A DNA stretch of 64,000 bases, from the NCBI GenBank assembly GCA_030390025.1, contig CM059432.1, forward strand, positions 38,008,001 through 38,072,000, written 5' to 3'. Numbering within the stretch: the stretch's first letter is position 1; each line of letters starts with the position of its first letter. The DNA comes from Squalus acanthias. Its lineage: Eukaryota. The notes below the pieces were generated by a model. The model was not told where the DNA came from. It was given only the letters and a program-made list of their open reading frames with translations, and did no database searches. A program made the translations under genes and the position numbers. Below are positions 3,495 to 34,479 of the stretch, one piece after another.

Positions 3495-3498
3495 TTTC

Positions 3499-5080
3499 TG
3501 TAAGGGGTCAACGGTACTGGTGCGAGGTGAGTCCTTCGTTGCCTATACTATTGCTTGCTCTGGTCTCCGGCCAGACTTTTGCAATAAGCACCTGTGAGTG
3601 GTTTGACCCACTCGCCCTTACGGTTCTGACACCTGGACTTAGATGCAAGGAGCAGTAATGCAGAGAAAAGACTCAAATAGACCCGGTCGAATAGCACAAA
3701 ATGAATATCTTTATTGCATGGCGTCTAAAATCATGAAATACATGTCATAGGCACAGAGCAAAGAGAGTACAAGTACACACACGTTCATAAAACTTGGTCT
3801 ATGGAAATGGGGAACACACGACACATCGTAAAAGGGGGAACACATTATACATTAACATTAGAAACCACCCTCCCTTAATATACCTAAACTACGTCTGGAT
3901 TTGTAGGATCGGAAAACATGCTCACCACTCGGCTCACTTCGGAAATTTAAAGTGAGGCACTCAGCTCGTTTCGCTGCAGCGCTTGACTGTCACGTGTTTG
4001 GAAGGGTTTCTGCACCCCACTTGTTTACTCTCGCTGCCGCGAAAGGTAAGCCAGATTCCCTGATGTCATGAAGTGGTCGATGGATTCAGACCGGATCGTG
4101 CAGTAATCTGTAGAATTCAAAGGAAACGGTTCATGTAGTAGTCGGTAGAATTCAAGATGGATTCTGTCGTTATATCTTCGGGCGCGGTCGGGGTTTATTG
4201 ACCGTGGCGGCACGTGGAATTTCTTCTCGTCTTTCTTCTCGTCACTCGGGCCTCTGGGTCCGGACACCGTTTACCGCGCTCTGGATGGTGTACCCTGTTA
4301 CTTGCCCTGTCGAGGCGGCTCGTTCCGATTGAGCTCCACCCAACACTCGAATAACCGACCAGCACGGCTAAGAGTCAAGAGAGTCCAGCAAGAGCTTCAG
4401 GAAGAGAGGGTTCAGCCAGAGTCAAGAGAGTCAAGAGACCGATGGACATTTGTCCTCTATAGTTATACTGTTATGTCGGCCTTATCTCCCGCTCAAATCT
4501 AAATGTTATCCTTTGTGATTTTGGCGCTCAAAACTCCCAGCATGGGGCGATTATCTTCTCAACGGGTTTCGGTAGCACCTGAAACTGGCCAACTATCCGT
4601 TAATACCTTCTCCATTGTTGAGCCAGCCAGGATGTGTATGAATCGTCTCCTCGACTGGTTTTGGGGCCCCCCCGAATACTGGCTTAATCACCCGCCAATG
4701 TCTCTCTCATTGTTGAGCCGGGGGGGTATTTGTGTATTGATGTGTCTAGATGGGTTCTCGATGGCCCAGTTCAATGATCCTTACTGTGCGTAGGAAACGA
4801 TTCCAGCACTTATATCATTGCTATTGTTCAAGATGCGAACGGGTTGCATCCTGTCTTTACAATGTGTACCGAGTATGATACGATCTCATACTGAATGTGT
4901 ATTCGACGCCATCTTGTCTGCCCACTGTGTCTCTGGAAGCTTCTGCCATGATGCGCGGTGGCCATTTTACAGGCTTCTGTGTCCTTTATGATCAGGACAG
5001 CATTTCGTTTAATAAAAATGATCAATTGAATCTGCTGCTTCTCATGTTATTTTGAATCGCGATAATTGCGAAACTCTACA
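3499..5080 (-). repeat. 5' LTR of provirus A (about 1582 bp)
   Basis: It starts TGTAGAGTTTCGCAATTATCGCG, similar to the provirus B start TGTAGAATTCGCAATATATCGCG, and ends CCCTTACA followed by GAAAA and the PBS. It shares AATAAA, TATA-like and U5 blocks with the provirus B LTR. Confidence 0.88.
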
Positions 5081-5084
5081 GTAC

Positions 5085-6550
5085 CGGTTGGTCACTTTTA
5101 TCCCTCCCCCTGAGTTTGTCACCATGATACAGAAGAAGCTTGTTGACTTCTTCTGAGACAAAAGGAAGCACTGGGTCTCTGCCGACTTCTGAGTCTCCCG
5201 CTTCGGGAGGGCGGTCAGGCACTGGTGTGCCTTCGCACCCAGGCTGCGACTTTCCATCTTCAGACCCTGCAGAGATACCTGTACGTCGAGGATCCTCCCA
5301 GATGGCGTGCGCTGGTGATGTATTTCTTCTGCCAACTGCACGGTCTCAATTACGACACGCAGCTCCTGTTTATAAAATTGGGGTATAGCTGTGCCTCCTT
5401 GCAGGAGCTGCCTGTCTTCTACCAGGAGCTGATCAGGATCTGGAACAGGAGTGGTGGCTATCCTCCAGGAGCCACTGCTCAGAATTCCACACCTCCACGA
5501 CCCAGGTTTCAGGCGGAGGGGATGGCCCTGGAGGCAAGGTGACCAGAGTCGGGGACATACTGGATGGTGGAGGAGTGGGCTGGATGTCACCAGAGGAGCT
5601 GGCACAGCGCATGTTCTGGCACGGTATCCGGTTCGCGGCCAAAGCCATCGAGACGCTAAAAGAGGCACTCGGCCCTAACTCCACTAGTTGTGTTAAGGAG
5701 GCTCAAGCATGCGAGTGATCCCATCCAAACTGACCCCTGTTCGGGCGGAATTTCTCATCGGAGCCAGGCCCCGAAACATTCCTCGGGAGTCGGCACCTCA
5801 CAGCTTGAGCCGTCTCTCGGAGATGCTTTCCGTGCCTTTCCAGTCTGCATGGAGGAGCTTCCTGTACGGGCTGCTCTTGCACACTCTCCACTTTGTCTTC
5901 CTGGTCTGCCGTCCGGATACCATCTTGCCATCCGGAGTAGGCGAGGGTCCCCAGTGAAGGGCTCTCTACGCGGGAGTCCCCCCCTTTTCTACTGGGGACT
6001 TGGCGTGGGGGATGTTGCATGGAGCAGCACCATGCAACAAATCTTTAAGTTCACGGACTCGCAGGCTGCCTGCAATTTCAGTGGCCTGAAGTAGTCAATG
6101 TTCAATGTATAGAGAGTGTGAGAGGTTACAGCCCCTCTTCCAATCTTTGAAGGGGCTGCTCCTCAATTTTTGGCTGCACTTCAGTTGCACGCTCCTGATC
6201 TTTGGTCACCCGGTGCGGAGGGGAGTGGGCAGATCGGAGGACCTCCTTGTTGGGCTGCTCCTGGGCCTGGCCAAGGTGGCCATTAACAGGTCCAGGCAGT
6301 GGGCGGTTGAGGGGATCGTTCGGCCCAACTGCCTGGCTCTCTACTGTGGCTATGTTCATGCCCGGGTATCCCTGGAGATGGAGCATGTGGTGTTCGTTTG
6401 AGGCCTTCCGCGACCGGTGGGCATCTGAGGGACTGGAGTGCTTCATCACCCCCAGAAACACAATTCTGATTTGATTTGCCCAGTTTCATTTAAACTCGGT
6501 TTAATTTACGGTTTATTGGTTGTGCCCCTTTAAAAGCGGGCACTTGCTTC
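5085..6550 (+). mobile_element. Degenerate 3' part of an L1/Tx1-clade LINE ORF2
   Basis: Frameshifted segments such as LVCLRTQAATFHLQTLQRYL and ECERLQPLFQSLKGLLLNFWLHFS...LLLGLAKVAI resemble the post-RT/zinc-finger region of Tx1-type ORF2. A T-rich tail follows. Confidence 0.7.
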
Positions 6551-16648: not shown

Positions 16649-18414
16649 CTACTTTTTGCCCTTCGAGGGTGATCTCCATCCCTTGCCCACTTGCCTCCTT
16701 CCCACCCTACTGCTCCTCCGTAATGGGGCCCCAGTGGCTGCAGCAAGGCTGGTGGAAGGCTGCTGAATGTCAGATCCTGAGACTACAGATGCCCTTGAAG
16801 GATGCCCTCGACCAGCTCTGGGCCTGGAGGGCCCAGCTGCAGACTGCACCAACTCTGCATGGGCGGCAGCAGTCTGGGCTACAGGCGGTGGCAAGTGCAA
16901 TGGGGAAGTGACAGTGGTGGGAGCAGGAATGCTGTCATCTTGAGAGAGGACAGCACCTCCCTGCTTGACCGACACACTGCCACTCCCATGGGGCAGCACC
17001 TCAGCATCCGGAACAATCTGCTGGAGCACAGATTGCTGGCCTGCTGCGGCGCGGTGAGAGCCCCGGGGAAATGTGTCCGAACCAGCGAGGATGGCAGCAG
17101 TCAGTGCTCGCGTGGCCTCAATCTGAGTCTGCATGAGAGCAGTCAGAGATGGGTTCATGGCAGCCAATGACTGAATTGCAGCACTAAGCCATTGCGTGGC
17201 GTCCGCCTGTGCTGCAGCGTAGTGCTCCACACTCCTTGCCAGTGCATCAATGCTTTCGGGCACCCTTCCCACTGCACCCATGAGCTGAGTGTGCATGTCC
17301 ACCACCTGGGTGTTCATTTCAGCGATGAACCACTCCTCCTCTGCGTCCAGTGCAGCAGGACTCGCTGGCCTACTCTCCCTCCGGGGAGAAGGCCCCCGAG
17401 CTTCCCTAGCCACATCGCGTTGCTGCAGCCCGCTGGGTCCTGGAGCTTCACCCTCAGCAGACCCTTCCCCCCTGCTCCCTTCCAGGGAAGACGTGTTCCC
17501 AGTGTGGGCATGGGCTTCCTCGGGAGAGGGTGGCGCTGAGGCTCCAGCTTCCTCTTCCTCCGTGCCTGTGGCTTCGCTCCCACTGGCAGCTTGAGGGCCC
17601 GTCTCCTCAGCTGGTGAATCACCATCTGAAAGCAGGGAGGTACAAGAGTGGCTTTAGCGTGAGGACAGGGGGGCAGTAAGCGAGGAATGAGTGCAGCGAT
17701 TTAGTAAGTTGGATTGAAAGTGTCAAAGGCTGGTGTTGTGAGGGACAATTGGAAGGAGAGAGGACAAAAGGTGATGACCTTACCATTGCTGTCCAGAACA
17801 GGGGTCGGCCACTCCAGGGGCGATGGGACCGATCACCTGGTTTGCCACAATCCTGTGGATGCGCGCCTCAAGATCGCTGAGGGTTTGCAGCTGAGCCGGC
17901 CCTCCACCTGTCCGTTGCTGCTGTCTCCTATTCTGAGATAGCTTGGCCTGCAAGAAAAAGGACGGCGTCTGAGTAAATATGCAGCCATGGTCTTGCCTGA
18001 TGTGCCTCCCATATTTGAATAGCCCTTAATGTATGCAAGGTGTGGAATGTGCGTGTGTGTTTTATGAGATGGCCATAAGTCTTGGATGAGTGTTGGGCAT
18101 TGGGGTTTTAAGACCCTCTGGCCATAGAGTGAGGTTGAGATGGAGGGATGGAGAGGTATTGAAAAGCAGCCACTCACCCTGCCGACCCGTGTGAGGTCGT
18201 TGAACTTTTTGCGACATTGCCTATGGGTCCTGGGCACCATGCTCCTAGAGGAGATGTGATGAGCCACCTCCCTCCACACTCTTCCGTAGTCGCGCGGCAA
18301 TGGCCTCCTGCCACTCTCAGGGTATAGTATTGATCTTCGGCGTTCCACCACGCCAACCAGAGCCACCAAGGCCCGGTCGCTGAAGCGTTGAGCTCGATCC
18401 CTGACTCTCTCCAT
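16649..18414 (-). pseudogene. Myb/SANT-like protein of H2, three exons (18414-18178, 17947-17784, 17625-16649)
   Basis: RFSDRALVALV...WREVA...QCRKKFNDL with GT-AG boundaries. Exon 2 appears 1 nt out of phase with exon 3. Confidence 0.8.
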
Positions 18415-18490
18415 AGTCCTTGGCTGGAAAATTTAGGCACAGGTCTGTCCACGACGAGATTCAAGCCTGCAATGAGCAGGGTGTGGCTGG

Positions 18491-20202
18491 TGTAGAATTC
18501 GCAATATATCGCGATTTTATTAATAAGGAGAAAAACACAGAGTTTCGTTCAAACAGCTTTTATTTCAGCAGAATGCTGTCAGGTTTTCAAAGTGGACACA
18601 AGCAGCTTGTAAAATGGCCGCCGCGCCTCGTGGCAGGAACATTCTAGACTTTTCAACAGGCAGACAAGATGGCGTTCCAATAAACATTTGTGCAAGATCG
18701 ATTAAGACTCAGCACATTGAAGATAATACACGAGACATCATGGGTTTACAGTATACACATAAATACTGAAATCGGTCTCCCAGGTACGAATGAAAGCTAT
18801 TGTACCCAGTAATCAAGAACCCATCCAAAGACATTAATATGTAAAATCCCAACGACTCTACGATGAGAGAGCCGTTAGCGGGTAGTTACAGAAAACACTT
18901 GGAAGCCCCAAAACCCCTCCAGGGAGAACACCGACCGATTAAACAATGGGAGAAATATTAACAGGTACTCAGACATTTACGAGTAGCCCCGAAACCCATT
19001 AAAACGGAGATCACCATATACAAGACTTTTGAGCGCCAAACCCTAACAAAAGAAAAGACATTAAGGTTGGGCGGGAAACGGAAGATTTTGCACTATAATT
19101 GCAAGCTCAAACCGTCCATCTCTCTCTTATCCTCTTATCTTGCTGGTGTTTATCCTCGTGGCTGCTCCTGTGCTCTTGACTCGCCGTCTTGTTCTTGCTT
19201 GCCTCGTGTCTCTTTTAAAGACTGTTGAACTTTATGATCCGCTCGGATCTACCTCGTGTCGTGTCGCAAAGACCTGTGTAGAACTGGGCTCTGAAGCCTT
19301 GAAGCGGGCGCACCATTCCGATAAGTCGGTAAACGGTGTCGGAACCGAAGGCCCGAGATGAGATGAGATGAGATGAGATGAGAAGAGAAGAGAAGAAGAC
19401 CATACTTATCGCCACGGTCAGTAAGCCCCGACCGCGCCTGTAGGTCGAATAGACATTTTCCTTGCCAGGAAGACTTCTTTGAGTTCTACAGAACTGACAC
19501 AGGAAGACTCTTCTTTGAATTTTATCGCACCTGTGCGAGGGCACAGGAAGACTCTTTTTTTTGAGTATAGTCGGAACTCCGAGGACAACACAGATCTTCA
19601 TGACAGCAGACGTTCCAGCCTGCTAGCCGGAGCAGAACGAGTAAACAAGTGGGGCCAGGAGACCCCCCTGATCGACACGTGGGTGCTGCGGTGAAAAACA
19701 TCCGAACAGAGTTTTCGGAATTCTCCGAGTTATCACGAGTGGTGAGCATGAGTCTCGAATCCTACGAATCTAGCTAGGACAGATATTGATAGGGGAGGGT
19801 TTCAAGTATTAAGGATAATTGTAATGTGTGCCCCCATTTACGGTGTGTCGTTCGTTCCTCGTTTCCCTGAAATTAGTTACATAACTGCGTGTAAGATTGT
19901 ACTGTCATTAATCTGTGCTTATGACATGTATTTCGTAATCTTAAGTATTATGCAATAAAGATTTTCCATTTCGTACCATTCAACCGAGTCTACCTGAGTT
20001 TCATCTCCATTACTGCTCTCGCATCTAAGTCCAGTGTCTAGAACCGTATGGGCGAGTGGGTCGAACCACTCACAGGTGTGTATAGTGCTCCCAGACTGGC
20101 TGGAGACCAGAACAGGCAACAAGGCCTAAACCCGCACTAGCATACAGGCTGCACAGAGCCACACGAATCTCACAGGCTGAGAGACGGTCAGAAACCCTTA
20201 CA
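18491..20202 (+). repeat. 5' LTR of provirus B (1712 bp)
   Basis: Direct repeat of 29603-31314 with TGTA...TACA ends, TATAA at 19094-19098 and AATAAA at 19954-19959. Confidence 0.97.
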
Positions 20203-20206
20203 GAAA

Positions 20207-22012
20207 ATGGCGACCGCGGCAGGACACTGGCAGCGAGAGGGTAGTGTGTTAGACTTTGGTGTGAATGTACGAAATGTTATGCAGGAAAAGATAGCAGATT
20301 ATGTGTTCGGAAAGGTAAATCTAACTAAGAAATGGATAAGTGACTTGTTAGCGGATAAGAGTCCACTAGAGGCAGCCGAGAGGTGGACAGATAGTAAGGA
20401 ACATAAAAAGACAGTCGAGAAAGCAGTCTGGTTAATGTGTTACAAAAGGCAGGTCCAGATTTCAAACCAGGTCATTACAGCGCAAACAGCTCGGATCAGG
20501 CATTTAGAAGAGGAAATGGATGAGAAGGTCTCTGGAGGGGAGTTGCTCATTAGGAATTTAAGTGTGCTGCACCAAGAACGCCAGGAAATCACCAGTCACC
20601 ATAAAACAAGGATAGATTACCTCGAGTGCCAGGTCACTGAGGCAAAGTTAAGTGAGGGCAGACTAAAGGAACGATGTGCCCGCCAAGCTGCCCAGATAAG
20701 AACCCAGGAAGAGAGCTTAACGGGGGTTAGGGCGGCATATAAGTTGGCCCTTGAGGATAAGTTTCAGGGGGCCGATCATAGCGCCTGCCAACAGGAGATA
20801 GAGCACCTTAAAAGGGCCGTGAACAAAGCGCACGGCATGGTATGCCTTATCAGTCCGTCAGCACACCAGCCGCTAGTAAATGAGGAGTTTCAGAAATCCC
20901 CACCAAGTAAAGCAAAGGAAGTATTAGCCACTGCGCCCTCCGCGCCACCCAGCTATTCGGAAACCTGGGTAAGGGAGGAAGTAGTGGAAGAAACGAAAGA
21001 GCCCACTGAGAGAGAAGTGGAAAAGGGACCGTTGTATCCGGTTACGGGTATAAAAAGGGGCCCAAACAGAAACGGGGAGGAAAAAGGGGTTCTCCTCAAC
21101 CAGCTTGTGTTGCCTCACAGCTCACACCAGCTGAGAGTTATGATAAATCACGTACGGAAGCTGACCGAGTCAGACGACCCTTCCGTACATTTCAGAGAAA
21201 TTGAGCAAACCGCAGCCATCAACGGCTGCGATGATGGGGAAACAGCAAAAATGCTGTTATTTTCGTTAGGCAGTTCAATCCTTCAGTGTCTCTCGGACGA
21301 GAGCAAGAGGGGAACCAAGACTTATGAGGCATTAAAAAATGAGGTCCTAGAAGTGTTGGGGGCGGACGATGAAGGTCCGTTTGCTAGAGTGGGACAGACA
21401 GTGCAGATGGAGGGAGAACCCCCGAAGGTTTTTGCCGACAGGCTGTGGTCAGTATATCAGCGCAGCTGTCCAGGTGCGCCAGAGCGCGACGCTGTGGACG
21501 GCGCCGGTTTAAATCATTGGCTTAGGTGCATAGTAGCCAACAGTTTACCAGCCGTCAGAGAGCAGGCAAAAGCGTGGTTTGATCCCAATGACCCCAACAT
21601 TACGGAAGAGTCGGTCTTGAATCGACTCACGATAGGATATCGCAACATAAGGGGTATGGGAACACGTCCCCTTAAGGGAAAAGTACATGAGGTACGACCC
21701 GCAGCCCCGGCCCAAAGGGAGTGGCATCAGGAGGGTAACCGCGCCCCGCAGGCAAGTAATGCTTGTTACGGGTGTGGGAGGACAGGGCACTGGCGCAAGA
21801 ACTGCAGGAACCCTTGGAAGGATTCCAGGGATAAAAATCCCGCAGCCCGAGCCCAGATGCCTGTCTCTGTTAGGGAAGTTAGTACACCCACCCCTCCCGA
21901 CGACCTCGAATCAGTGTTGGGAGCCATGCGCAACTTCATGAGTGCGCATGGAAAAGTGGCGGTTGCTACCGGCCCCGTAGGTGCCGCAGGACCGTCTAAC
22001 CATACCCAATGA
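20207..22012 (+). CDS. gag: Gag polyprotein (601 aa; N-terminal coiled coil, capsid-like region, one CCHC knuckle)
   Basis: Open ORF with CYGCGRTGHWRKNC, heptad-rich segments and a PSAPPSY late-domain-like motif. Confidence 0.93.
   Translation: MATAAGHWQREGSVLDFGVNVRNVMQEKIADYVFGKVNLTKKWISDLLADKSPLEAAERWTDSKEHKKTVEKAVWLMCYKRQVQISNQVITAQTARIRHLEEEMDEKVSGGELLIRNLSVLHQERQEITSHHKTRIDYLECQVTEAKLSEGRLKERCARQAAQIRTQEESLTGVRAAYKLALEDKFQGADHSACQQEIEHLKRAVNKAHGMVCLISPSAHQPLVNEEFQKSPPSKAKEVLATAPSAPPSYSETWVREEVVEETKEPTEREVEKGPLYPVTGIKRGPNRNGEEKGVLLNQLVLPHSSHQLRVMINHVRKLTESDDPSVHFREIEQTAAINGCDDGETAKMLLFSLGSSILQCLSDESKRGTKTYEALKNEVLEVLGADDEGPFARVGQTVQMEGEPPKVFADRLWSVYQRSCPGAPERDAVDGAGLNHWLRCIVANSLPAVREQAKAWFDPNDPNITEESVLNRLTIGYRNIRGMGTRPLKGKVHEVRPAAPAQREWHQEGNRAPQASNACYGCGRTGHWRKNCRNPWKDSRDKNPAARAQMPVSVREVSTPTPPDDLESVLGAMRNFMSAHGKVAVATGPVGAAGPSNHTQ
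20208..20225 (+). promoter_or_regulatory. Primer-binding site complementary to tRNA-Arg(UCG)
   Basis: TGGCGACCGCGGCAGGAC is the reverse complement of ...GTCCTGCCGCGGTCG-CCA, the 3' end of a vertebrate tRNA-Arg(UCG) as I recall it. Confidence 0.85.
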
Positions 22013-25000
22013 CTAGAGCCCGCGCAGCCCGTCTACCTGTGTCCGCTCAGCTATGATGCGTGGAAGCGACCCCTGGTGGAAATGGAGGTAGAGAAACAGA
22101 AGGGTAGTTATTTGTTGGACACGGGAGCTTCTTGCACCGTGATTCATACAGATAGCCCTTTTGACTCACCGCTATCTACCAAGGTCCCATTCACATTAGC
22201 GGGGTTCACGGGAAAAGAACAGGCTGGCGCGTTCTCCTTTCCGCTATCCATTCGTTTGGGGGCACTTCACATCAAGTGGAAGTGCATATTGATGGAATGG
22301 CAGGAGGGGGGTGGAAGAGGTATCCTCGGGTCCGATCTCCTATCAGGACACGGGATCCTCGTGGACCTCAGAAATCATTGTCTCTGGGGGGCTAAGAGTG
22401 AAAAAGGCGAGGTAGTGGTAATTCCGGGGGAGGAAGAAACAGGGGTCCTGTGTACCATGCAGCCATCCGGAGGCTACGACCTCGGGCTCATGGTCGCAGA
22501 TGTCCCAACGGACATGCAAACGTACGTGTCAGATAATATGCACGCGTTTGCAACCCACAAGCACGATTGTGGGAGGGTTACCGGGTTTGAGGTCAGCGTA
22601 GATGGGGACCCCATGACCCGGCCCCAAAAACAGTATAACTTCCCCAAAGAAGCAGAACCCGATATGGAGACAGCAATGTCCTCCTTGGTGCAGCAGGGCG
22701 TGTTGAGGCCGATAGCCACACACGTGAACTCCCCATTATGGCCGGTTAGGAAGCCGGATAATTCATGGAGGGCCACGGTGGACTACAGAGTCCTTAACAG
22801 TAACATTCCCGCCTGCGCGCCCACGGTAGCGGCAGTTGCTGACCTAATAGGGAGTATCCCAGCGTCCGCGACCACGTTCACGGTTCTGGATATCTCGAAC
22901 GGTTTTTGGTCCATCCCGCTGCGGCGAGAGGACCAGTACAAGTTTGCCTTTACTTTCAAAGGACAACAGTACACATGGAACTGTCTGCCACAGGGTTTCC
23001 ACAATAGCCCCAGTATTTTCCATCAGTGTATGGCAGGAAGTTTAAAGGAGTTTAGTCAGCCCAATCAGATAGTGCAGTACGTGGATGATTTGCTCCTATT
23101 TACGGATTCAAGGGAGGAGCATGGACCACTGCTGGCCGAGTTATTGGAGCTGCTAGCGAGAAAGGGTTTTAAAGTAAACCCATAGAAAGCACGTATCGGT
23201 CAGCAGGAAGTAAAATTCCTGGGACTGACCATTCGCGCTGGGGAAAGAGCCATAGATAAGGCTAGGAGGGAGTCGGTGCAAGAGTTACCGATTCCCAACA
23301 ACATAAGGGGTGTGAGGTCCTTCTTGGGACTGACCGGTTACTGCAGGGATTTTATCGAAGACTATGCGGCCACAGCGGCGCCGCTCCTCCGACTCCTCCA
23401 TAAGGAAGTGGAGTGGTCTTGGGACGAGGGCTGCCAAGCAGCCTTCGAGAAGTTAAAAAGGGATCTGCAGACCGCGCCAGCTTTAGGGGCCATAGATGGG
23501 GGGAAGGAGTTTTTCCTGGAAGTAGCTGCCAGCAGGGACAGCTTGAGCGCTGTGCTGCTCCAAGAGCGCCACGGCAAGCTGAGGCCGGTTGTCTATTCGT
23601 CCAGGGTGTTAACGGATGTGGAGAGAAGTTTCTCCAATTGCGAAAGGCACCTTTTAGCCACGCATTGGGCTGTGAAAAGATCAGCGATCTTCACAGGGCT
23701 CTCTCCCATCACTCTCCTCACCCATCACACACCAACTAAGATGCTTTTAGATGGGAGGATTAAAGATGGGACCGTAAGCAGTGTGCGCATTGTGCGCTGG
23801 ACCCTTCTTCTTTCCCAGATGGATCTTAGAGTAAAAGGTCTTTGCGAGCCTAGGCTTGCAGCCAATTTGGTATACCCCGGTACAGCCCACCGATGTTCGG
23901 TGGAAGGGGTGTGGGACGTCAACATAGGTTTGCGGGCCGGGATACATCCCACTGGGCGCGAGATTTATGTTGATGGTTCTAGCACAGTATCTGCTGGCGA
24001 ACGACTCACAGGGTGTGGAGTTTATGACCCTGCGGCAAACCTTGCCCTGGCGATCAAGCTCCCTAGCACCATGAGCGCGCAGCAGGCTGAGCTGTCTGCA
24101 GTGGTGTATGTTGTTACCCACCCAGACATTTTCCCAACCCCATACACGATTTGCTCGGACAGTATGTTCACATGTAATTCGTGTACGGAATACTTGGCCA
24201 TTTGGTCCCGCCGTGGATACACCTCCGCGGACGGGCGACCTTTAACGGTGAAGCCCTTGCTGAAAAAGATCCTAGCAGCAGTAGGGGAGGAAGGGGAGAT
24301 TTTCATCCATAAGGTGAAAGCTCACTCCTCCACAGAGCCCCGTGGGGAGGGCAACCAGCAGGCGGATGCGCTAGCCAGGGAAGGTGCCCGCAACGGCATT
24401 TTCTGGGACCCCTATGGGACCAGACCCATGGCAGCGATCCAAGGCAGGGACGGGAATCCCGGGAACACCAGGGTAGCATTGCCCCTAGACCTTAAGACCG
24501 TCCAAACCCAGGATCCCGCCCTAAAAGCAGTCCTAAAAACCATTGCTGAGGGGAAGCAAGTAGAGGGTCCGTACAGTACGGCAACCCTCTCAGTTAAGGA
24601 AGGCATGCTGTTCCGCGAGGAGCAGTGGGTTGTGCCGCAGCAGCACAGGAGGGAATTCCTCCAGTTGGCTCACGAGGGACCAGGGGCAGGGCACCCCGGG
24701 CCCAAGGTTACCTGGCAACGGGTAGAGCAAGCGGGATGGTGGCCAGGGCTCAGGGAACAGGTCCGCGAGTTCTGTGCAAACTGTCTTGTGTGCGCTGCAA
24801 ACAACCCAGACCCCCAGAAAAGGAAAGTGCCCATGGGGCACGTAAGAAGGGTAGAGGGACCATGGCAGTCGATACAGATCGACTATATAGGGCCCCTGCC
24901 CACCACCCAGGGAGGTTATAAATACTGCCTCGTCTTGGTGGATGTGTTTTCCAAGTGGGTGGAAGCCTTCCCCTGTCGAACAGCTACGGCACTGGGTACT

Positions 25001-26500
25001 GCAAAAATCTTGGTCCGGGAAGTGTTCTCGCGGTGGGGACTTCCCCGTTTTGTGGAGTCAGACCAAGGGAGTCATTTCACCGGCCAGGTGATGCAGAACA
25101 CCCTCATGCTTTTGGGCATTGAAGGGAAGTGGCACGTAGCACACAATCCCCAGTCATCCGGGATTGTTGAACGCATGAACCGGACCCTGAAGGAGAAATT
25201 GAGGAAAGAGACTAGGAACTCGCCCCAAAAATGGGCGGAGGTTCTGCCTTTAGTCCTCATGGGGGTCCGGGCCAGTCAGTCGAAAAGTACGGGGTATTCC
25301 CCGCACGAGGTGATGACTGGGAGGCTCATGCGAACCCCCACCCATGTGCTAGCGCCGGTGCTCACTGAGGGCCAGCTCCAAGAGATAAGCAGGGACAAGT
25401 TCGCCCAGACCCTCTTGGAGCGCCTGAAGCAGGTTTATGAGCAGACGGCTGGGAACATGGGAAGGCAGCATCAGGGCAATCGCCTGTTGCTGGAACCCCG
25501 CAAAATGCGGGAGTGGGAAGTAGGAGACCAGGTCATGGTCAGAAACTACGCCAGAGTAGGGAGTCTGGAACCACTGTATATGGGACCCTACAATATTGTA
25601 GATAAAGCGAGTCCCATGGTATACGCCGTAAAGGTACCTCGGCGCACTAAGTGGTTCCATGTAAACCAGTGCAAACTGTACAAGCCAGGTGCGCAAGGGA
25701 AAACCACAGGGGTAAAACCTGCGAGTGGGGACGCGCAGCCCCAGGTAGGACCACAAGGCACACAGGCAGGCAAAGCAGCTTGCATCAGGGGAGGAGACAT
25801 CCTGGAAAATTGTGAAACATTTTTGTGGGGTTGGGAGTCAGATGAGGGAGAGTTCTTGGAACTCGAGTCAGATGAGGATAGTGATGAGGACGAGTGGGGA
25901 TCAGGGAACGCAAGGGTCGCCCCCGATTCAGGTATAGGGAGGACAGGGGCTGCAGATAGAGATCCACACAGGGTGGACACCGAGGCTGCAGGTCCCGAAC
26001 ACAGGAGGGAGGAGCTAGGGGAGGCGGAGCCAGCCACTGTGGGACCACAGGGCGTGACGGTGAAAACCTCAGAGCCCGAGCCGCCCACCTTGAACGTCCT
26101 GCCCTCGGGGGAGGTAGGGATTGCGAGTGAAGGGCCGCCTGCTGGGCCGAGCAGGGCGGTGCCACAAGCTGCAAGTCCCGAGGTCAGGGAGGCGGAGTCA
26201 GGGGAGGCGGAGCCAGCGACTGTGGTGGGACCACAGGTCGTCCCGGTGGAAGTCTCGGAACCCGGTCCGTCGGTCCTGGGATTCTTGCCCCCGACAACTC
26301 CTCGTAGGTCAGGTCGAGCACCCCAGCCCAGGAAGATGTGGTCATGTCCCCAGACTGCCCCAAGGCGTAGGCTTAAGGTTAAGGCAGCCCAGGTAGGGCC
26401 CAGTCCCATCGCAGCAGCAACAGGCTGCGGCAGATCAGAGGAAGGGGTCAGAGCCCTCCCACCGTCGGGAAGAGCTCGTAGCAGCCTTCTCAGAATTTAA
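22013..26500 (+). pseudogene. pol: Pol (PR-RT-tether RH-RNase H-IN-C-terminal extension), in frame with gag, single premature TAG at 23183-23185
   Basis: Motifs DTGA and YVDD; second RNase H YVDGS/SAQQAEL/CSDS/HKVKAH/GNQQADALA; HHCC; IDYIGP, SDQGSHF, GIVERMN and GPY. Provirus A has AAG at the stop position. Confidence 0.93.
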
Positions 26501-26800
26501 AGGGGGCCGCCCTGAGAACGGGCGGCGCTGTACAGTAATAAGTTTAGGATAGGTTTCTAAGTTTATAGTTTAAGGTTAAGAATAAGTTTATAGTTTTAAT
26601 CAGGTTAAGTTTGTAGTTTAATTTTAACAGAAAATGATAAAATGATGGGAGCTTTAGAAATAGGTTTAGTTAAAGTTTATTCAGCGAACATTGAAGTTTA
26701 CGTGAGGCGAGGTCAGGGGACCCGCTCACCCTTCACAAAAGCCAGAGACTCGTGCGAGGCTGGCTACCTCATTCTATCTGATCACAGGAACCAAGGAAGG

Positions 26801-29152
26801 ATGGAACGAATTCTAGTATTGCTCGCGGCAATCGGATGTGGATTGGCCTATCGAGGCCGCACCAAGGATGTCGTGGTGTTTGGATGCTCCGGGGACACGG
26901 CCCCCATCGCGGTGGATGGGACCGGAAGACGGGAGGCTGAGGAGACCACCACCTATTTCCACAAGGGAAGGTGGCCAGGATGGCTGGGAACAAACTCAAC
27001 GGAGTATTCTAGCACATCGGGGTTTGCCTACCAAGAGACTTCTTTAATGTGCCCCAAAGTAAGGATCATCGCACCCAGAATCAGCGTCACCGTCGGCAAA
27101 CGGATTTGTTTGACTTGTAATGGGAATGTCCCATTGAGCCGATGGTGGTGGCTGCGAAAGCTGAGCAAAAACATGAGGAACTCTTCGGTCGAGTGGGAAC
27201 GACTGGGTAATAATACCCATCAGACAATTACGGGGACAAACGGACAAGTGAGAGTCTGTTGGGACAAATGGTGGGAACCGGATGAGGGAATTTATGTATG
27301 TATGTGGGGGTCAAAGTACGTTTGCCCCAAAGGCATCTCCATATTTTTCATTAATCAATGGCAGGATAACGGACAGGGGATGAGGTGGGATGCGAGCACC
27401 AGGGGGTGCGGAGCCCCATTCTCCCCGATCCCGGTAAATGCCACTGAACTCATTACGCGCCCACGCAAAGCCCCGCCCACGATTCCGGTGGTTCTAGCTG
27501 AAGAGGAAGGGTGCCCTAAAACCAGTAAGGGACCCGGGAATGGTTTGGTACTGGTCCCCACAGACCAGATACTATTCCAGGGGGTACATTACGCGGTGGC
27601 CTCGGTGATTTTAAATCTCACCGAGGTACGGTTACCAGAGTGGTGCCCCAAAAGGACGGAACAGTTATATCAGGTCCTGTTGACCAAGATGTTCAGACAA
27701 TTTTACGAATTCGATTTCGCGGAAATTGATAAAACAAGTTTGTACACCGCACCACATGAAGTTTTGGATCAAGTAGGGAGGCAAAGAAGGAGTGTAGTGA
27801 ACGACGCGTTCACTGCTTTTAACACGGGTACATCTGTGGTCAACGCTCTAGACAGTGTGGAGCTGCAGACCCAGATTAATGGTTTAAAGACGCAATTAAA
27901 AGACATTCTAACAGATGAGAATAAAGTGGTAGGGTCGGGTTTACACGAGGACCAAGCCATGACTCTCCATTTAAAGGAAATTATAGCAGAGTTAGAGAAA
28001 CATGCAAAGACGGTAAATGCCCTGATTAGGGAAGATCGGAATGCATCCGATCAAGCTGCGCAGAATGAGGTGTGCGTGCTTTACGGGGCGTGGTTACTGG
28101 GCGAAGGCCGCAGTAATTTGGAGGATTTAAAACAAGGTTTGGTCCCGTCCTGGATAAGTAACAAACACCTGCGGGCGCTCCACCCTTTTCAGAATGCATT
28201 AAGTCCGTGCCAGCTCAGGCTAGCTTCAGAAGCTTACCCAGTCCCCGTGGACTGCGGACGATCAAACCATACTATTATGGGTATAGTACTACGTATGCCG
28301 GTTTTGGGCGACACAGCAAAGCCCGCCCCGGTGTATCGGGTAGAGAACATTGGTGTCATTCAGGAGGGAGCCCACATTCGCTATGCAGCGGTTCCACCCT
28401 ACGTCATCCGCTGGGAGCAAACGATGACAGGTACAGATCTCTCTGGTTGTCGTGGCAGGGGAGCACACATAATACTGTGTCCCCAGCACTTGAATGCCTT
28501 TTTAACACCACAGTGCGGGTTCAGAACGGCTGGCGCCAAGTCCATGAATTGCACCATGGAGGCAATGGCACAAGATCATGTGCCTCCGCAGGTAGCATAC
28601 ATCGGGGGTGGAACATATTGTGTTACCACTGCAGCGCAACACTACCAGCATGGAAACCGTAGCCGGTGTCCGGTGAGTGACAGCAGTTTCTGTTTCAAAC
28701 CCAGGACGGAGGTTCAAGTAGCACAACAGCGAATTGTCCCAATCCCTGAACCATCCACTGTTCATCTAACAGTAAAAGAGAATTTCACCGACTTGCAGCG
28801 ATTCGTCGCGCATTTCGGATACCTCATTCCCCCTCTCCCTGAACACCTCACCAAGCTTTTAAAAGCCGTCGCGGTGTCACAAAAACATTTTTACACACTA
28901 GAGCAGAAAACTGTCGAAATAGGGACAGACATTCTGGACATAGTAATTCCACCGTGGTGGAATCTGTTCACCAACATTGAAGTACCTTCATGGATCAGGA
29001 TAGCCTCCCACATTTTAGTCGTATGCCAAGTTTTTATTGTAGTGTACCTATTGGTCGTACATTGTAAAAGAGACAAACGCCTCACCAAGCATGAAAACAC
29101 GGGAGAGTGGCGAGAACGTTATGTGCGCGTGCACGATGAAAGCACCGTGTAA
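26801..29152 (+). CDS. env: Envelope glycoprotein (783 aa from the signal-peptide Met; class I fusion-like, with an Ig-like domain)
   Basis: Signal peptide MERILVLLAAIGCGLA, several N-x-S/T sites, furin site RQRR at 27779-27790, heptad repeats, a Cys-rich ectodomain, a TM helix and a short tail. A candidate splice acceptor lies at 26787. Confidence 0.9.
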   Translation: MERILVLLAAIGCGLAYRGRTKDVVVFGCSGDTAPIAVDGTGRREAEETTTYFHKGRWPGWLGTNSTEYSSTSGFAYQETSLMCPKVRIIAPRISVTVGKRICLTCNGNVPLSRWWWLRKLSKNMRNSSVEWERLGNNTHQTITGTNGQVRVCWDKWWEPDEGIYVCMWGSKYVCPKGISIFFINQWQDNGQGMRWDASTRGCGAPFSPIPVNATELITRPRKAPPTIPVVLAEEEGCPKTSKGPGNGLVLVPTDQILFQGVHYAVASVILNLTEVRLPEWCPKRTEQLYQVLLTKMFRQFYEFDFAEIDKTSLYTAPHEVLDQVGRQRRSVVNDAFTAFNTGTSVVNALDSVELQTQINGLKTQLKDILTDENKVVGSGLHEDQAMTLHLKEIIAELEKHAKTVNALIREDRNASDQAAQNEVCVLYGAWLLGEGRSNLEDLKQGLVPSWISNKHLRALHPFQNALSPCQLRLASEAYPVPVDCGRSNHTIMGIVLRMPVLGDTAKPAPVYRVENIGVIQEGAHIRYAAVPPYVIRWEQTMTGTDLSGCRGRGAHIILCPQHLNAFLTPQCGFRTAGAKSMNCTMEAMAQDHVPPQVAYIGGGTYCVTTAAQHYQHGNRSRCPVSDSSFCFKPRTEVQVAQQRIVPIPEPSTVHLTVKENFTDLQRFVAHFGYLIPPLPEHLTKLLKAVAVSQKHFYTLEQKTVEIGTDILDIVIPPWWNLFTNIEVPSWIRIASHILVVCQVFIVVYLLVVHCKRDKRLTKHENTGEWRERYVRVHDESTV

Positions 29153-29590
29153 TCGGAAAATGGCGTCACTCCCGCTCGCCACGTGCGCCGCGGAAGTTTG
29201 TACTCGATCATGATCTTTAAAGACTGTAAATACGTTTGGAACTCGACATGTTTAAGAGTGGGTTTGATTGTTTTGGTGATGGTGTTGTTGTTGAATATGA
29301 CTGTTTGGTTTTGTTTTGTTTTCCTTTCCCTAAATAAAAAATGTGAATATACAGGTGATACGAGAGGCATCGGCCTGGTTACGCCTGGAAGGAAAACAAG
29401 TGGTGTAAGTTTAAAGGCAAATAATGCCTGCGGTGTTATAAAATGTAATTTTCTTGGGAAATAAGGACGACGCAAAGACCCTAGATAGTTTAAGTTATGG
29501 GATTAAATTTTCTGGATTCGGAGAAAATCGAGATAATATTGCTCGCCACAATATTTTTTTTTTGATACGATAAGCGGAGTTATTCGCATC

Positions 29591-29602
29591 AACAGGAGGG
29601 AC
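29591..29602 (+). promoter_or_regulatory. Polypurine tract
   Basis: AACAGGAGGGAC lies immediately before the 3' LTR. Confidence 0.75.
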
Positions 29603-31314
29603 TGTAGAATTCGCAATATATCGCGATTTTATTAATAAGGAGAAAAACACAGAGTTTCGTTCAAACAGCTTTTATTTCAGCAGAATGCTGTCAGGTTTTC
29701 AAAGTGGACACAAGCAGCTTGTAAAATGGCCGCCGCGCCTCGTGGCAGGAACATTCTAGACTTTTCAACAGGCAGACAAGATGGCGTTCCAATAAACATT
29801 TGTGCAAGATCGATTAAGACTCAGCACATTGAAGATAATACACGAGACATCATGGGTTTACAGTATACACATAAATACTGAAATCGGTCTCCCAGGTACG
29901 AATGAAAGCTATTGTACCCAGTAATCAAGAACCCATCCAAAGACATTAATATGTAAAATCCCAACGACTCTACGATGAGAGAGCCGTTAGCGGGTAGTTA
30001 CAGAAAACACTTGGAAGCCCCAAAACCCCTCCAGGGAGAACACCGACCGATTAAACAATGGGAGAAATATTAACAGGTACTCAGACATTTACGAGTAGCC
30101 CCGAAACCCATTAAAATGGAGATCACCATATACAAGACTTTTGAGCGCCAAACCCTAACAAAAGAAAAGACATTAAGGTTGGGCGGGAAACGGAAGATTT
30201 TGCACTATAATTGCAAGCTCAAACCGTCCATCTCTCTCTTATCCTCTTATCTTGCTGGTGTTTATCCTCGTGGCTGCTCCTGTGCTCTTGACTCGCCGTC
30301 TTGTTCTTGCTTGCCTCGTGTCTCTTTTAAAGACTGTTGAACTTTATGATCCGCTCGGATCTACCTCGTGTCGTGTCGCGAAGACCTGTGTAGAACTGGG
30401 CTCTGAAGCCTTGAAGCGGGCGCACCATTCCGATAAGTCGGTAAACGGTGTCGGAACCGAAGGCCCGAGATGAGATGAGATGAGATGAGATGAGATGAGA
30501 AGAGAAGAAGACCATACTTATCGCCACGGTCAGTAAGCCCCGACCGCGCCTGTAGGTCGAATAGACATTTTCCTTGCCAGGAAGACTTCTTTGAGTTCTA
30601 CAGAACTGACACAGGAAGACTCTTCTTTGAATTTTATCGCACCTGTGCGAGGGCACAGGAAGACTCTTTTTTTTGAGTATAGTCGGAACTCCGAGGACAA
30701 CACAGATCTTCATGACAGCAGACATTCCAGCCTGCTAGCCGGAGCAGAACGAGTAAACAAGTGGGGCCAGGAGACCCCCCTGATCGACACGTGGGTGCTG
30801 CGGTGAAAAACATCCGAACAGAGTTTTCGGAATTCTCCGAGTTATCACGAGTGGTGAGCATGAGTCTCGAATCCTACGAATCTAGCTAGGACAGATATTG
30901 ATAGGGGAGGGTTTCAAGTATTAAGGATAATTGTAATGTGTGCCCCCATTTACGGTGTGTCGTTCGTTCCTCGTTTCCCTGAAATTAGTTACATAACTGC
31001 GTGTAAGATTGTACTGTCATTAATCTGTGCTTATGACATGTATTTCGTAATCTTAAGTATTATGCAATAAAGATTTTCCATTTCGTACCATTCAACCGAG
31101 TCTACCTGAGTTTCATCTCCATTACTGCTCTCGCATCTAAGTCCAGTGTCTAGAACCGTAAGGGCGAGTGGGTCGAACCACTCACAGGTGTGTATAGTGC
31201 TCCCAGACTGGCTGGAGACCAGAACAGGCAACAAGGCCTAAACCCGCACTAGCATACAGGCTGCACAGAGCCACACGAATCTCACAGGCTGAGAGACGGT
31301 CAGAAACCCTTACA
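29603..31314 (+). repeat. 3' LTR of provirus B (1712 bp)
   Basis: Direct repeat of 18491-20202, followed by the TSD CTGG. Confidence 0.97.
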
Positions 31315-32355
31315 CTGGAGAGCAAGATCAACCCTCCCCTTTAAGAACTGGCCGGCGCCAGTGTGTCAGTGTTCCATTGCTAACTGACATCACCTGAGCT
31401 TCGCCAGCGCTCTGAGTTAACGCCTCACTCCTCGGCCTTTGCGCCTTAAGACAGGTGTGTAGCGCTTGATTTAGCGCTCCAATCACCTCCAGGGGCGATA
31501 AAAGCCAAGTTTGCAGTCGGAGGCGATAATTAGCGGCAGGCGTTAAACTTTGCACCTGGCCGATAATTGCGCCCCAAACGGGACGATACCGAATTTCTCC
31601 CCCTAAGACTCTAGTTTCAGACTGAGGCAATTCACTCTCAAACTTAATGTGAAATTCTATCATATTATGATTACTCTGCCCCAGAGGATCCTTTACTATG
31701 AGATTGCTAATTAACCCTGTCTCATTACACATTACAAGATCTAAAATAACCTGTTCCCTGGTTGTTTCCATGATGTATTGTTCTAGGAAACTGTCCCGGA
31801 TGCATTCCATGAACTCGTCCTATAGACTACCTTTGCCAATTTGATTTGTCCAGTATATATGAAGATTAAAGACCACACGATTATTGCATTACATTTGTTA
31901 CAAGCTCCTACTATTTCTTGATTAATATTCTGTCCAACAGTATAGCTACTGTTAGGGGGCCTATATACTACTCCTACCAGTGTTTTCTGCCCCTTGTTAT
32001 TCCTTATCTCCACCCATACTGATTCTACTTCCTGATCTTCCGAGCCGAGATCCTTTCTCTCTACTGTCCTTATGTCATCCTTTATTATCAGGGCTACCCC
32101 ACCCCCCTCCACCTTTTCCATTCTGCCTGTCTTTTCGAAACGTCAAGTACCCTGGAACATTTAGTTCCCAACCTTGGTCACCTTGCAACCATGTCTCTGT
32201 AATGGCTATTAGATCAAGCCCATTTATCTCTATTTGTGCCACTAGTTCATTTATCTTGTTCATGCATTCAGATAAAGAGCCTTTAATTTAAATTTTTTAC
32301 CATTATTCCCTGCATTAACCTTCTTCTCTGCTGCACTGCTACCGTTAAACTCTCT

Positions 32356-32733: not shown

Positions 32734-33222
32734 CTGGAGAGATTTAACGCCGTGTGAAGGAGTTTTGGGTACTGAGCAGCACTTTGCAGGTTCATTTTGA
32801 TTTGCCCTTCCTTGCATCTATTTCGAAGAGACTGTGGGGGCTGCACTCTGAGCTCTTTCCCTGGGTCTCTCCATTGTTCTTTCCAGCAGATTTGATGTAC
32901 AGGTCTCTCCAGGCCGAGATTCAAGCTGCAATGAGCAGGATGTGGATGGAGAGCAAGATCAACCCTCCCCTTTAAGAGCTGGCCGGCGCCATTGTGTGTG
33001 TGTTCCATTGCTGACTGACATCACATGAGCTTCGCCAACGCTCTGAGGTAGAGCCTCGCTCCTCGGCCTTTGCGCCTTATGACAGGTGTGTAGCGCTCCA
33101 ATCACCTCCAGGGGCGATAAAAGCCAAGTTTGCAGTCGGAGGCGATAATTAGCGCCAGGCGTTAAACTTTGCGCACAGCCGATAATTGCACCCCAAATGG
33201 GGCGATACTGAATTTTTCCCCC
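32356..33222. mobile_element. Non-autonomous Harbinger H3 (internal-deletion relative of H2)
   Basis: TIRs GGGGGAAACATTC/GAATTTTTCCCCC and TSD TCT. The right arm is homologous to the H2 right arm, and there is an internal (GA)n at 32701-32730. Confidence 0.88.
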
Positions 33223-34479
33223 TCTGTCCCTTCCTGTCACACTCTGCTTATTTTTACCCCAATTATTACACTGCTCTATTGCCTTGAGCTTTCTCTTTAG
33301 ATTTCTAAATTTCCGCTCACCTGACCACCCCTCCCTTTTTTTAGTTTAAAGCCCTATATTATTCGATTCGCCAGGACGCTCGTCCCAGCCCAGTTTAAGT
33401 GCAGCCCGTCCCAACAGTACAGCTCCCTCTTTCCCCAGTACTGGTGCCAGTCACACATGAATTGAAACCCCTTCTTCCCACACCACTCTTTGAGCCACGC
33501 ATTTATCTCTCTGATGTGCTTGACCCTGTGCCAATTTGCGCGTGGCTCAGATAGCAATCCAGAGATTATTACCCTTGAGGTTCTGCTTATTAATTTAGAC
33601 CCTAACTCCTCAAACTAGCTCAGCAGATCCTCATTCTTAGTTCTACCTATGTCATTGGTTCCTACATGGACCACGATAACTGGATCCTCCCCCTCCCACT
33701 CCAAGTTCTTCTCCAGCTGCGAGGAGATATCCTTAACCCTGGCACTGTGCAGGCAACACAGCCTTCGGGACTCTCTTTCGCGGCTGCAGAGAACAGTATC
33801 TATTCCCCTGACTATACTGTCCCCTACCACTACCACATTTCTTCCTTCTCTCCCCACTTGGATGGCCCCCTGTACCACGGTGCCATGGTCAGTTTGCCCA
33901 TCCTCCCTGCAGTCCTTTTCCTCATCCATACAGGTAGCAAGTACCTCGTACCTGTTGCCGTTAAGAGTGCTAACCAGAATTGGACACAATACTCTAGCTG
34001 AGGTCTAACCAGTGATTTATAATGGCTTACTATAACTTTCATATCAAGCCATTAAGTAAATGCAATAGCATTTACTGATGCAGCAACTGTCATGTACAAT
34101 CATAGAACTATAGAATGATACAACATAGAAGGAGGCCATGCGGCTAATCATGTCTGCGCCAGCTCTTTGAAAGAGCTATCCAATTAGTCCCATTCCCCGC
34201 CCCCTTTCCCATGTGACTAATTACCATATGACTGACACTCTAGGAGTACATCCAACCAGAGTTGGAAACCCTAGCTGACAGAGTGGCATTGGGCATAATC
34301 GCAATTCCACCAGGACATATATAAATGCCCCACCATCTGATGGATGGTACCACAAATACAAAACAAGTGGGCTCAATCTATCTAGAAGTGTTTCTGGCCA
34401 ATGCTTAGGAATATTTTGGTTCTTGGCATCAATAAGACAGATAATGTACTGCAGTGGCCCTCAGTTGCAGGAGGCTTCA

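Follow-up and report, generated by a model that had tools for sequence, protein, structure and literature searches.

A predicted class Ib, F-like envelope protein in a young endogenous retrovirus of Squalus acanthias

We analyzed 64,000 nucleotides of the Squalus acanthias genome (contig CM059432.1; hereafter the window, in whose coordinates all positions are given), in which a sequence-only reading had described 27779..29060 as a fusion subunit shaped like that of paramyxovirus and pneumovirus F rather than an orthoretroviral transmembrane subunit (TM). Our results indicate that this region encodes the fusion subunit of an open env gene in a young endogenous retrovirus (ERV). The predicted structure points to a class Ib fusogen, likely with an immunoglobulin (Ig)-like receptor-binding head, and we give this reading as a whole a probability of about 85%. 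The env gene sits in a whole 12.8-kb provirus with the layout long terminal repeat (LTR)-gag-pro-pol-env-LTR.

An open env frame with the order of a class Ib fusogen

Every motif named in the sequence-only reading was found in a single frame, the open reading frame (ORF) 26609-29152 (+). Numbered from the ATG at 26801, RQRR occupies residues 327-330 (starting at 27779) and is directly followed by SVVNDAFTAFNTGTSVV, which starts at 27791. DLSGC lies at 28436, IILCP at 28469, PQC at 28508, NCT at 28547 and GGGTYCV at 28604. The class Ib order of furin-type site, putative fusion peptide, heptad repeat A (HRA) and, further downstream, heptad repeat B (HRB) and transmembrane helix is present, with the following parts:

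26801..29152, + strand: env ORF, 783 residues, ATG at 26801, without an internal stop
26760..26787, + strand: likely env splice acceptor, judged from sequence; a pyrimidine run followed by CAG, with the ATG 13 bases further on
26801..26857, + strand: likely signal peptide (Kyte-Doolittle mean 2.73 over residues 4-16)
27068..27355, + strand: probable Ig V-like domain, residues ~90-185 (Cys...Trp...DxGxYxC; Pfam, model and structure searches)
27413..27511, + strand: Pro/Thr-rich linker (sequence; predicted local distance difference test, pLDDT, <50)
27512..27790, + strand: F2-like segment, residues 238-330, up to and including the RQRR furin-type site; predicted from structural alignments to be part of the F core, as strands and a helix
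27791..27850, + strand: putative fusion peptide, mildly hydrophobic and amphipathic
27797..28132, + strand: HRA and central helices, residues 333-444 (model and heptad analysis)
28229..28735, + strand: Cys-rich β region, approximately F domains I/II, residues 477-645 (pLDDT block means 67-94; structure matches)
28835..28933, + strand: HRB, residues 679-711 (model and heptad analysis)
29000..29062, + strand: transmembrane helix, residues 734-754, then a tail of ~29 residues (hydrophobicity)

Between RQRR and the hydrophobic stretch at residues 734-754, the ectodomain measures 403 residues, in agreement with the earlier estimate of about 400. Without a shuffle control, the hydrophobic share at heptad a/d positions versus other positions was 0.73 vs. 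0.31 for residues 384-420 and 0.80 vs. 0.27 for residues 677-712, and the bias was weak at residues 345-377 (0.60 vs. 0.30). Nine of the ten cysteines between the cleavage site and the transmembrane helix were each conserved in 21-26 homologous rows out of the 24-28 that cover the position, and C470 was conserved in 11 of 25 rows. Ahead of the cleavage site, C238 was conserved in all 12 rows and C282 in 13 of 15. From its position and conservation, we infer that the segment following RQRR would act as the fusion peptide.

The marks of gamma-type Env were not found. A motif scan of the 783-residue protein revealed no CX6CC, and a crude regular expression detected no motif resembling an immunosuppressive domain (ISD), as the sequence-only reading had also noted. 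The sole C-X5-8-C past the cleavage site is C623-C631, and Pfam returned no envelope family for env at E≤1.

The predicted fold resembles paramyxovirus and pneumovirus F

We modeled env with AlphaFold2 from a 41-row alignment (mean pLDDT 61.4; predicted TM-score, pTM, 0.44). Confidence is good at residues 241-310 and through most of 421-650 but low across the N-terminal third, and the model has helices at residues 333-376, 383-444 and 679-711 and a β-rich region at 477-645. When compared with the PDB using Foldseek, all 36 listed rows were paramyxovirus or pneumovirus F, the best being human parainfluenza virus 3 (hPIV3) F (E 1.5e-10). In a wide VIA search of 48,161 chains, the top 12 rows consisted of ten F and two foamy Env chains (Z 10.4 to 7.1), and the first unrelated row stood at 6.8. 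A second look with VIA gave a best Z of 11.6 against post-fusion Nipah F, with a root-mean-square deviation (rmsd) of 5.3 over 293 residues; 49 of its best 50 rows were F and one was foamy Env (Z 8.6). Structure-based identity between env and F was 5-16%. No orthoretroviral TM or surface subunit (SU) chain appeared among the listed Foldseek PDB and VIA rows, which is a mere absence.

ESM Atlas, which compares language-model features, returned PF00523 as its best match (0.94, with 208 of 256 shared), followed by baculovirus-F and gypsy Env clusters. In the viral structure library BFVD, the best row was a lispivirus-type glycoprotein (E 8.4e-15), and baculovirus F (E ~1e-10) and respirovirus F were also listed. 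With F ranked first by Foldseek, VIA and ESM Atlas, the models favor an F-like fold of class Ib over that of a gamma-type TM, as had been proposed for the fusion subunit.

BFVD further listed the predicted Env of the walleye epsilonretroviruses WEHV1 and WDSV (E 7.9e-14 and 1.1e-10), the glycoprotein of a fish filovirus and, last, feline foamy Env. The walleye and filovirus rows (2, 5 and 8) had TMq values of 0.24, 0.11 and 0.31 and are a lead only. Epsilon envelopes have been counted among the gamma-type (PMC12690878).

The VIA alignments run from residue 243-245 to ~710 and start by matching F2 residues ~25-38. Because the structural alignments begin at residue ~245, the ~85 residues ahead of RQRR are predicted to be the F2 equivalent. 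Such an F2 equivalent is the mark of class Ib fusogens (PMC11468914), and the predicted fold is the nested F-type one, domains I-III, to which both sides of the cleavage site contribute. The interval 27779..29060 thus correctly located the fusion subunit but omitted an F2-like segment (residues ~245-330) of the same fold, together with the probable Ig-like head.

The sequence-only reading had treated a match to foamy Env as grounds for rejecting an F-type fold. This was a false choice, because foamy Env is itself F-like (PMC11468914); in our searches it reached Z 8.6, against 11.6 for the best F.

A probable Ig-like head precedes the predicted F core

Residues ~90-185 of env contain a Cys...Trp...DxGxYxC pattern, and Pfam Ig_3 matched the N-terminal domain weakly (E 0.051). 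When residues 78-190 were folded alone from a 5-row alignment, an all-β model with a pLDDT of 60 was obtained. The best 50 VIA rows for this model were Ig-fold chains, judged by title and range, and were led by TREM-1, TREM2 and BTLA; the highest Z (6.5, TREM-1) is under the tool's caution line of 8. Foldseek returned antibody chains, the best at E 1.2e-3 and none at E≤0.001, and ESM Atlas gave Ig clusters at 0.88-0.90. In addition, a bamboo-shark relative carries the UniRef name 'Ig-like domain-containing'. These results lend moderate support to a probable Ig V-like domain ahead of the predicted F core. Since this domain precedes the Pro/Thr-rich linker and gamma-type Env have IgV-like receptor-binding domains (RBDs; bioRxiv 2024.03.17.585361), it is by analogy likely to be a receptor-binding head. 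The class Ib mechanism and the N-terminal placement of an RBD have been published (PMC11468914). Two distant relatives also hint at an Ig domain: P0012, which is named Ig-like, and P0033, with a Pfam V-set match at E 0.045.

Evidence weighing against the F-type assignment

Several results count against a class Ib Env with an Ig-like head. The whole-env model is weak, with 306 of 783 residues below a pLDDT of 50, and Foldseek gave only small TM-scores (TMq 0.18-0.29) and large rmsd values. Pfam detected no PF00523 match for env or its post-cleavage part, nor for any of the 41 family members at E≤0.1. Neither phmmer nor a profile search found F or Env in the PDB, the only hit being a gp160 fragment at chance level (E 1). 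The segment after RQRR is just mildly hydrophobic, with a Kyte-Doolittle mean of 0.68 over 20 residues and values of 0.36-0.84 in six homologues. A CXXC (CLTC), the SU hallmark of gamma-type Env, occurs at residues 103-106 inside the Ig-like part, without a CX6CC partner. The Ig assignment itself is limited by its shallow 5-row alignment, its pLDDT of 60, a Z below 8 and the lack of a Foldseek match at E≤0.001.

The predicted link between env and F therefore lies in fold and language-model features and not in sequence.

Env relatives and the question of recent capture

Among 1.84 billion representatives, 53 proteins matched env at E≤0.001, more than chance would give. The named relatives are from Rhinoraja (75% over the matched part), Pristiophorus, Scyliorhinus, Mustelus and Chiloscyllium, and the frogs Pelodytes, Xenopus and Mantella follow at ~20%; taken by themselves, they point to a host among the cartilaginous fishes. 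Overall, homologous Env occur in other shark lineages and frogs at 19-31% identity. Four database gene models, P0002, P0007, P0010 and P0039, were seen by eye to fuse Env fragments to host-type domains (Niban-like, zinc-finger, cadherin-like and F-box-like), and these are probably annotation chimeras.

This distribution bears on whether the F-type env was passed down within retroviruses or is a recent capture from a Mononegavirales virus. Such a capture would be in line with the best solved-structure matches being paramyxovirus F, above foamy Env, and with a lispivirus-type glycoprotein leading BFVD. However, the order of Z values carries no information on the direction of transfer, and the low structure-based identity to F is accompanied by no sequence-level match. 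The homologues in other shark lineages and frogs argue for long residence in retroelements, and F-type Env are widespread in foamy viruses, lokiretroviruses and errantiviruses. We therefore regard recent capture as very improbable.

Retroviral placement of the element

The reverse transcriptase (RT) carries the motifs LDISNGFWSI, LPQGF(H), PTVA and QYVDD. It is 41% identical to P0081, which by eye matches the snakehead retrovirus (SnRV) row of PMC7947760, and frog and coelacanth Pol are nearer, at 50-52%. A viral contig collection scanned with the Pol query yielded no relative. We built RT trees from 39 and 31 of 76 extracted RT segments; the omitted rows were mostly gypsy-type outgroups, and the trees included no Loki, foamy or named ERV-L rows. 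The element was split from the gypsy rows at 100/100 and fell in the retrovirus clade, within an open polytomy and with no specific SnRV grouping. In approximately unbiased (AU) tests on a quick LG+G4 tree, with groups defined once the first tree had been inspected, a clade with SnRV was not rejected (p-AU 0.156) and a clade with ten class I-type rows was weakly rejected (p-AU 0.029).

A single-knuckle Gag and an in-frame pol fit SnRV-type elements (PMC2717909), and the element has both a single-knuckle Gag and pol in frame after the gag stop. It shares the RT motifs LDISNGFWSI, LPQGFH and QYVDD and the single-CCHC Gag with SnRV and its ERV kin, which are found across vertebrates (clade Huo; PMC6001957) and, with env, in the elephant shark (CmiERV lineage I; PMC4422223). 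The Env searches returned no protein bearing the name of SnRV Env. The best reading of these sequence features is that the element would be a deep-branching canonical-type retrovirus of class III/SnRV grade.

Our first guess, a lokiretrovirus, was dropped on the RT motifs. Under that reading the element would be the first lokiretrovirus (lokiortervirus) recorded from cartilaginous fishes, with the published Loki F-like Env as its env. The Pol relatives are labeled 'NYNRIN-like', and we take CGIN1 to be the same as NYNRIN. The Loki integrase is reported to lie near CGIN1, and the F-like Env, the LTR-gag-pol-env layout and a dual RNase H, which Pfam also found in our pol, are shared with Loki (PMC7947760, PMC9040795), although the layout and dual RNase H are common to canonical retroviruses and not diagnostic. 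The Env proteins are also alike in having a signal peptide, a furin-type site, a coiled coil, a transmembrane helix and kinship to paramyxovirus and pneumovirus F. As Loki was reported in 0 of 6 chondrichthyan genomes (PMC7947760), the element would extend the Loki host range. In contrast, all 24 published Loki RT rows (Dataset S2 of that paper) read PFG by eye where the element reads LPQGF; in this it is like the SnRV, foamy and gamma rows. The one Loki Env compared, Loki-Xtr, reaches its F2-like segment within ~30 residues rather than ~240, and thus lacks the ~200 extra N-terminal residues with the probable Ig domain. Furthermore, a PF00523 match is reported for Loki Env (2.2e-7; PMC7947760), and none was found here. 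Lokiretrovirus identity is accordingly unlikely, and we retain the class III/SnRV-grade placement as the best reading.

A young provirus carries the env

The provirus is delimited by identical target-site duplications and contains the following features:

18487..18490, + strand: left target-site duplication, CTGG (4 bp)
18491..20202, + strand: 5' LTR, 1712 bp, TG...CA ends; 5 mismatches and no indels against the 3' LTR
20207..22012, + strand: gag, 601 residues, one CCHC knuckle, TGA stop then CTAG; ATG 5 bases past the LTR
22013..26500, + strand: pro-pol in the gag frame, with protease, RT, tether, RNase H, integrase and a low-complexity tail (Pfam and ORFs)
29603..31314, + strand: 3' LTR, 1712 bp, with a purine-rich stretch before it (LTR comparison)
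31315..31318, + strand: right target-site duplication, CTGG

The two LTRs are identical at 1707 of 1712 positions (99.7%). The divergence of 0.0029 corresponds to an insertion age of 0.66 or 6.6 million years, using a mammalian or an assumed shark rate, both quoted in PMC4422223. A single in-frame stop at 23183-23185, within RT, breaks pol, so this copy is probably unable to produce an RT of its own. The Gag CCHC lies at residues 519-534, and its Pfam zf-CCHC match (E 0.0054) is below the curated cut-off. In all four public runs examined, every one of the 30 bins across 17600-29602 is covered by contigs (31,564 of them in run X1), and these carry many variant letters, which fits a multi-copy family and gives no copy count.

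An open env beside a broken pol would agree with past or ongoing co-option of env as a syncytin-like host fusogen, and the sequence-only reading had pointed to an intact fusogen as raw material for co-option. Contigs from run X8, guessed to be RNA, cover env, although contigs show neither transcription nor rank. However, a syncytin-like gene would be expected as an open env in an old, decayed provirus, whereas this provirus is whole with nearly identical LTRs; for that reason, a single stop arising by chance in pol, with env spared, requires no selection. The many variant contigs in all four runs, the insertion within repeated sequence and the fragmentary state of most shark and skate Env relatives in databases also speak against host use. 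That the env frame is open most likely reflects the youth of the insertion (about 0.7-6.6 million years) and not host use. Co-option, which the young whole provirus and its many close relatives leave unsupported, is in our view highly unlikely, and the open frame should not be taken to indicate a new host gene.

Comparison with known F-type envelopes

F-type Env of retroelements are known in kind. The novelty implied by the sequence-only reading does not hold, as F-like Env have been published for lokiretroviruses (PMC7947760) and F-type Env for errantiviruses (bioRxiv 2023.10.26.564294); the F core is also shared by foamy Env (PMC11468914), and class I fusogens have been surveyed in Viro3D (PMC12583693). 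What is new is that this backbone, this host group and a probable Ig head come together.

The predicted F2/F1 topology, the ~400-residue F1 ectodomain, HRA, the Cys-rich β domains, HRB and the transmembrane helix are shared with paramyxovirus and pneumovirus F (hPIV3 1ZTM, Nipah 8DMJ, respiratory syncytial virus 3RKI; PF00523). Env differs from these proteins in its 5-16% identity, its weakly hydrophobic fusion peptide, its encoding by a provirus and its likely built-in binding head in place of a separate attachment protein. Foamy Env (PDB 8RM0/8RM1; PMC11468914) is likewise a retroviral Env with a class Ib core, scoring Z 8.6 and 7.1 in the VIA wide search. Its RBD lies between the two subunits and it has an N-terminal membrane-spanning leader, whereas the extra domain of our env is N-terminal and residues 245-330 run straight into RQRR with no inserted RBD. 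In addition, the Gag described here has a CCHC knuckle, which foamy Gag lacks (PMC2717909), and pol is in frame after gag. Errantiviruses and baculoviruses also provide F-type Env, in the former case on LTR retroelements (bioRxiv 2023.10.26.564294), but errantiviruses are built on a Ty3/gypsy Pol, from which the RT here is separated at 100/100.

By analogy with these proteins, env would be expressed from a spliced RNA using the acceptor-like site at 26787. The Env would trimerize and be cut by furin at RQRR, and the Ig-like head may bind a cell-surface partner. The segment after RQRR would then enter the target membrane, and zippering of HRA with HRB into a six-helix bundle would fuse the membranes.

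In the literature we found, retroviral F-type Env are those of foamy viruses and lokiretroviruses, and a young, open example on another backbone in cartilaginous fishes widens this range. Among Creative Commons papers and bioRxiv, none was found to describe an F-type Env for SnRV-like, epsilon or shark ERVs, a weak negative. Surveys of fish and amphibian Env sought gamma and beta types (bioRxiv 2021.11.23.469661; PMC12690878; PMC10435555), and ERV surveys requiring gamma- or beta-type TM motifs would likely miss the F-type shark Env family. The ISD-bearing ectodomains described in sharks (PMC11521997) belong to a different Env, and we found nothing on F-type shark Env in PMC13709493. As a compact natural class Ib Env near F in size, the protein should be expressible and solvable.

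The finding also bears on whether retroviral Env had one origin or several. PMC9040795 favors independent Env gains in the canonical and Loki lineages. A tentative alternative, which we hold possible but rather doubtful, is that F-type (class Ib) Env is the ancestral retroviral Env, surviving in foamy viruses, lokiretroviruses, the deep-branching shark/frog lineage of canonical retroviruses and perhaps, judging by predicted structure, walleye epsilonretroviruses, with the CX6CC/ISD type as a later replacement. If this were true, the shark/frog lineage would represent a third modular design, in which an Ig V domain has been captured and set before an F scaffold, like the binding module of the coronavirus spike.

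Other features of the provirus and window

The gag ATG lies 5 bases past the 5' LTR (20203-20225, +), overlapping the expected primer-binding site. At its end, gag has TGA followed by CTAG (22010-22016, +) instead of an amber stop, presumably a strong read-through context. The Pol tail after integrase (25750-26500, +) comprises ~250 acidic, Pro/Gly-rich residues and includes an internal 74-bp duplication (25969-26042 and 26152-26225). Between env and the 3' LTR, an 84-residue ORF with a hydrophobic stretch (29210-29464, +) may encode an accessory protein or be due to chance. The LTRs (18491-20202 for the 5' copy) are long, at 1712 bp, and one of their five differences lies within a (GAGAT)n/(GAGAA)n microsatellite.

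The provirus interrupts a repeated sequence (flanks 18389-18490 and 31316-31604), of which an uninterrupted paralogue lies 1.5 kb downstream at 32849-33223. The ORF at 17833-18432 (-) beside this repeated sequence looks like that of a Myb/SANT-type transposon. In run X8, a loose end passes from left-flank to right-flank sequence with nothing between. This empty-site junction supports the element boundaries and carries no weight for insertion polymorphism, because both flanks have the uninterrupted paralogue; another repeat copy may be its source.

A second, diverged copy of the family lies in the opposite orientation (-) at 1-3931 and 4860-5085, cut by the window start. It shows 81% nucleotide identity overall, with 93% in the pol arm and 76-77% in the gag arms, a contrast that may reflect subfamily recombination or merely different constraint.

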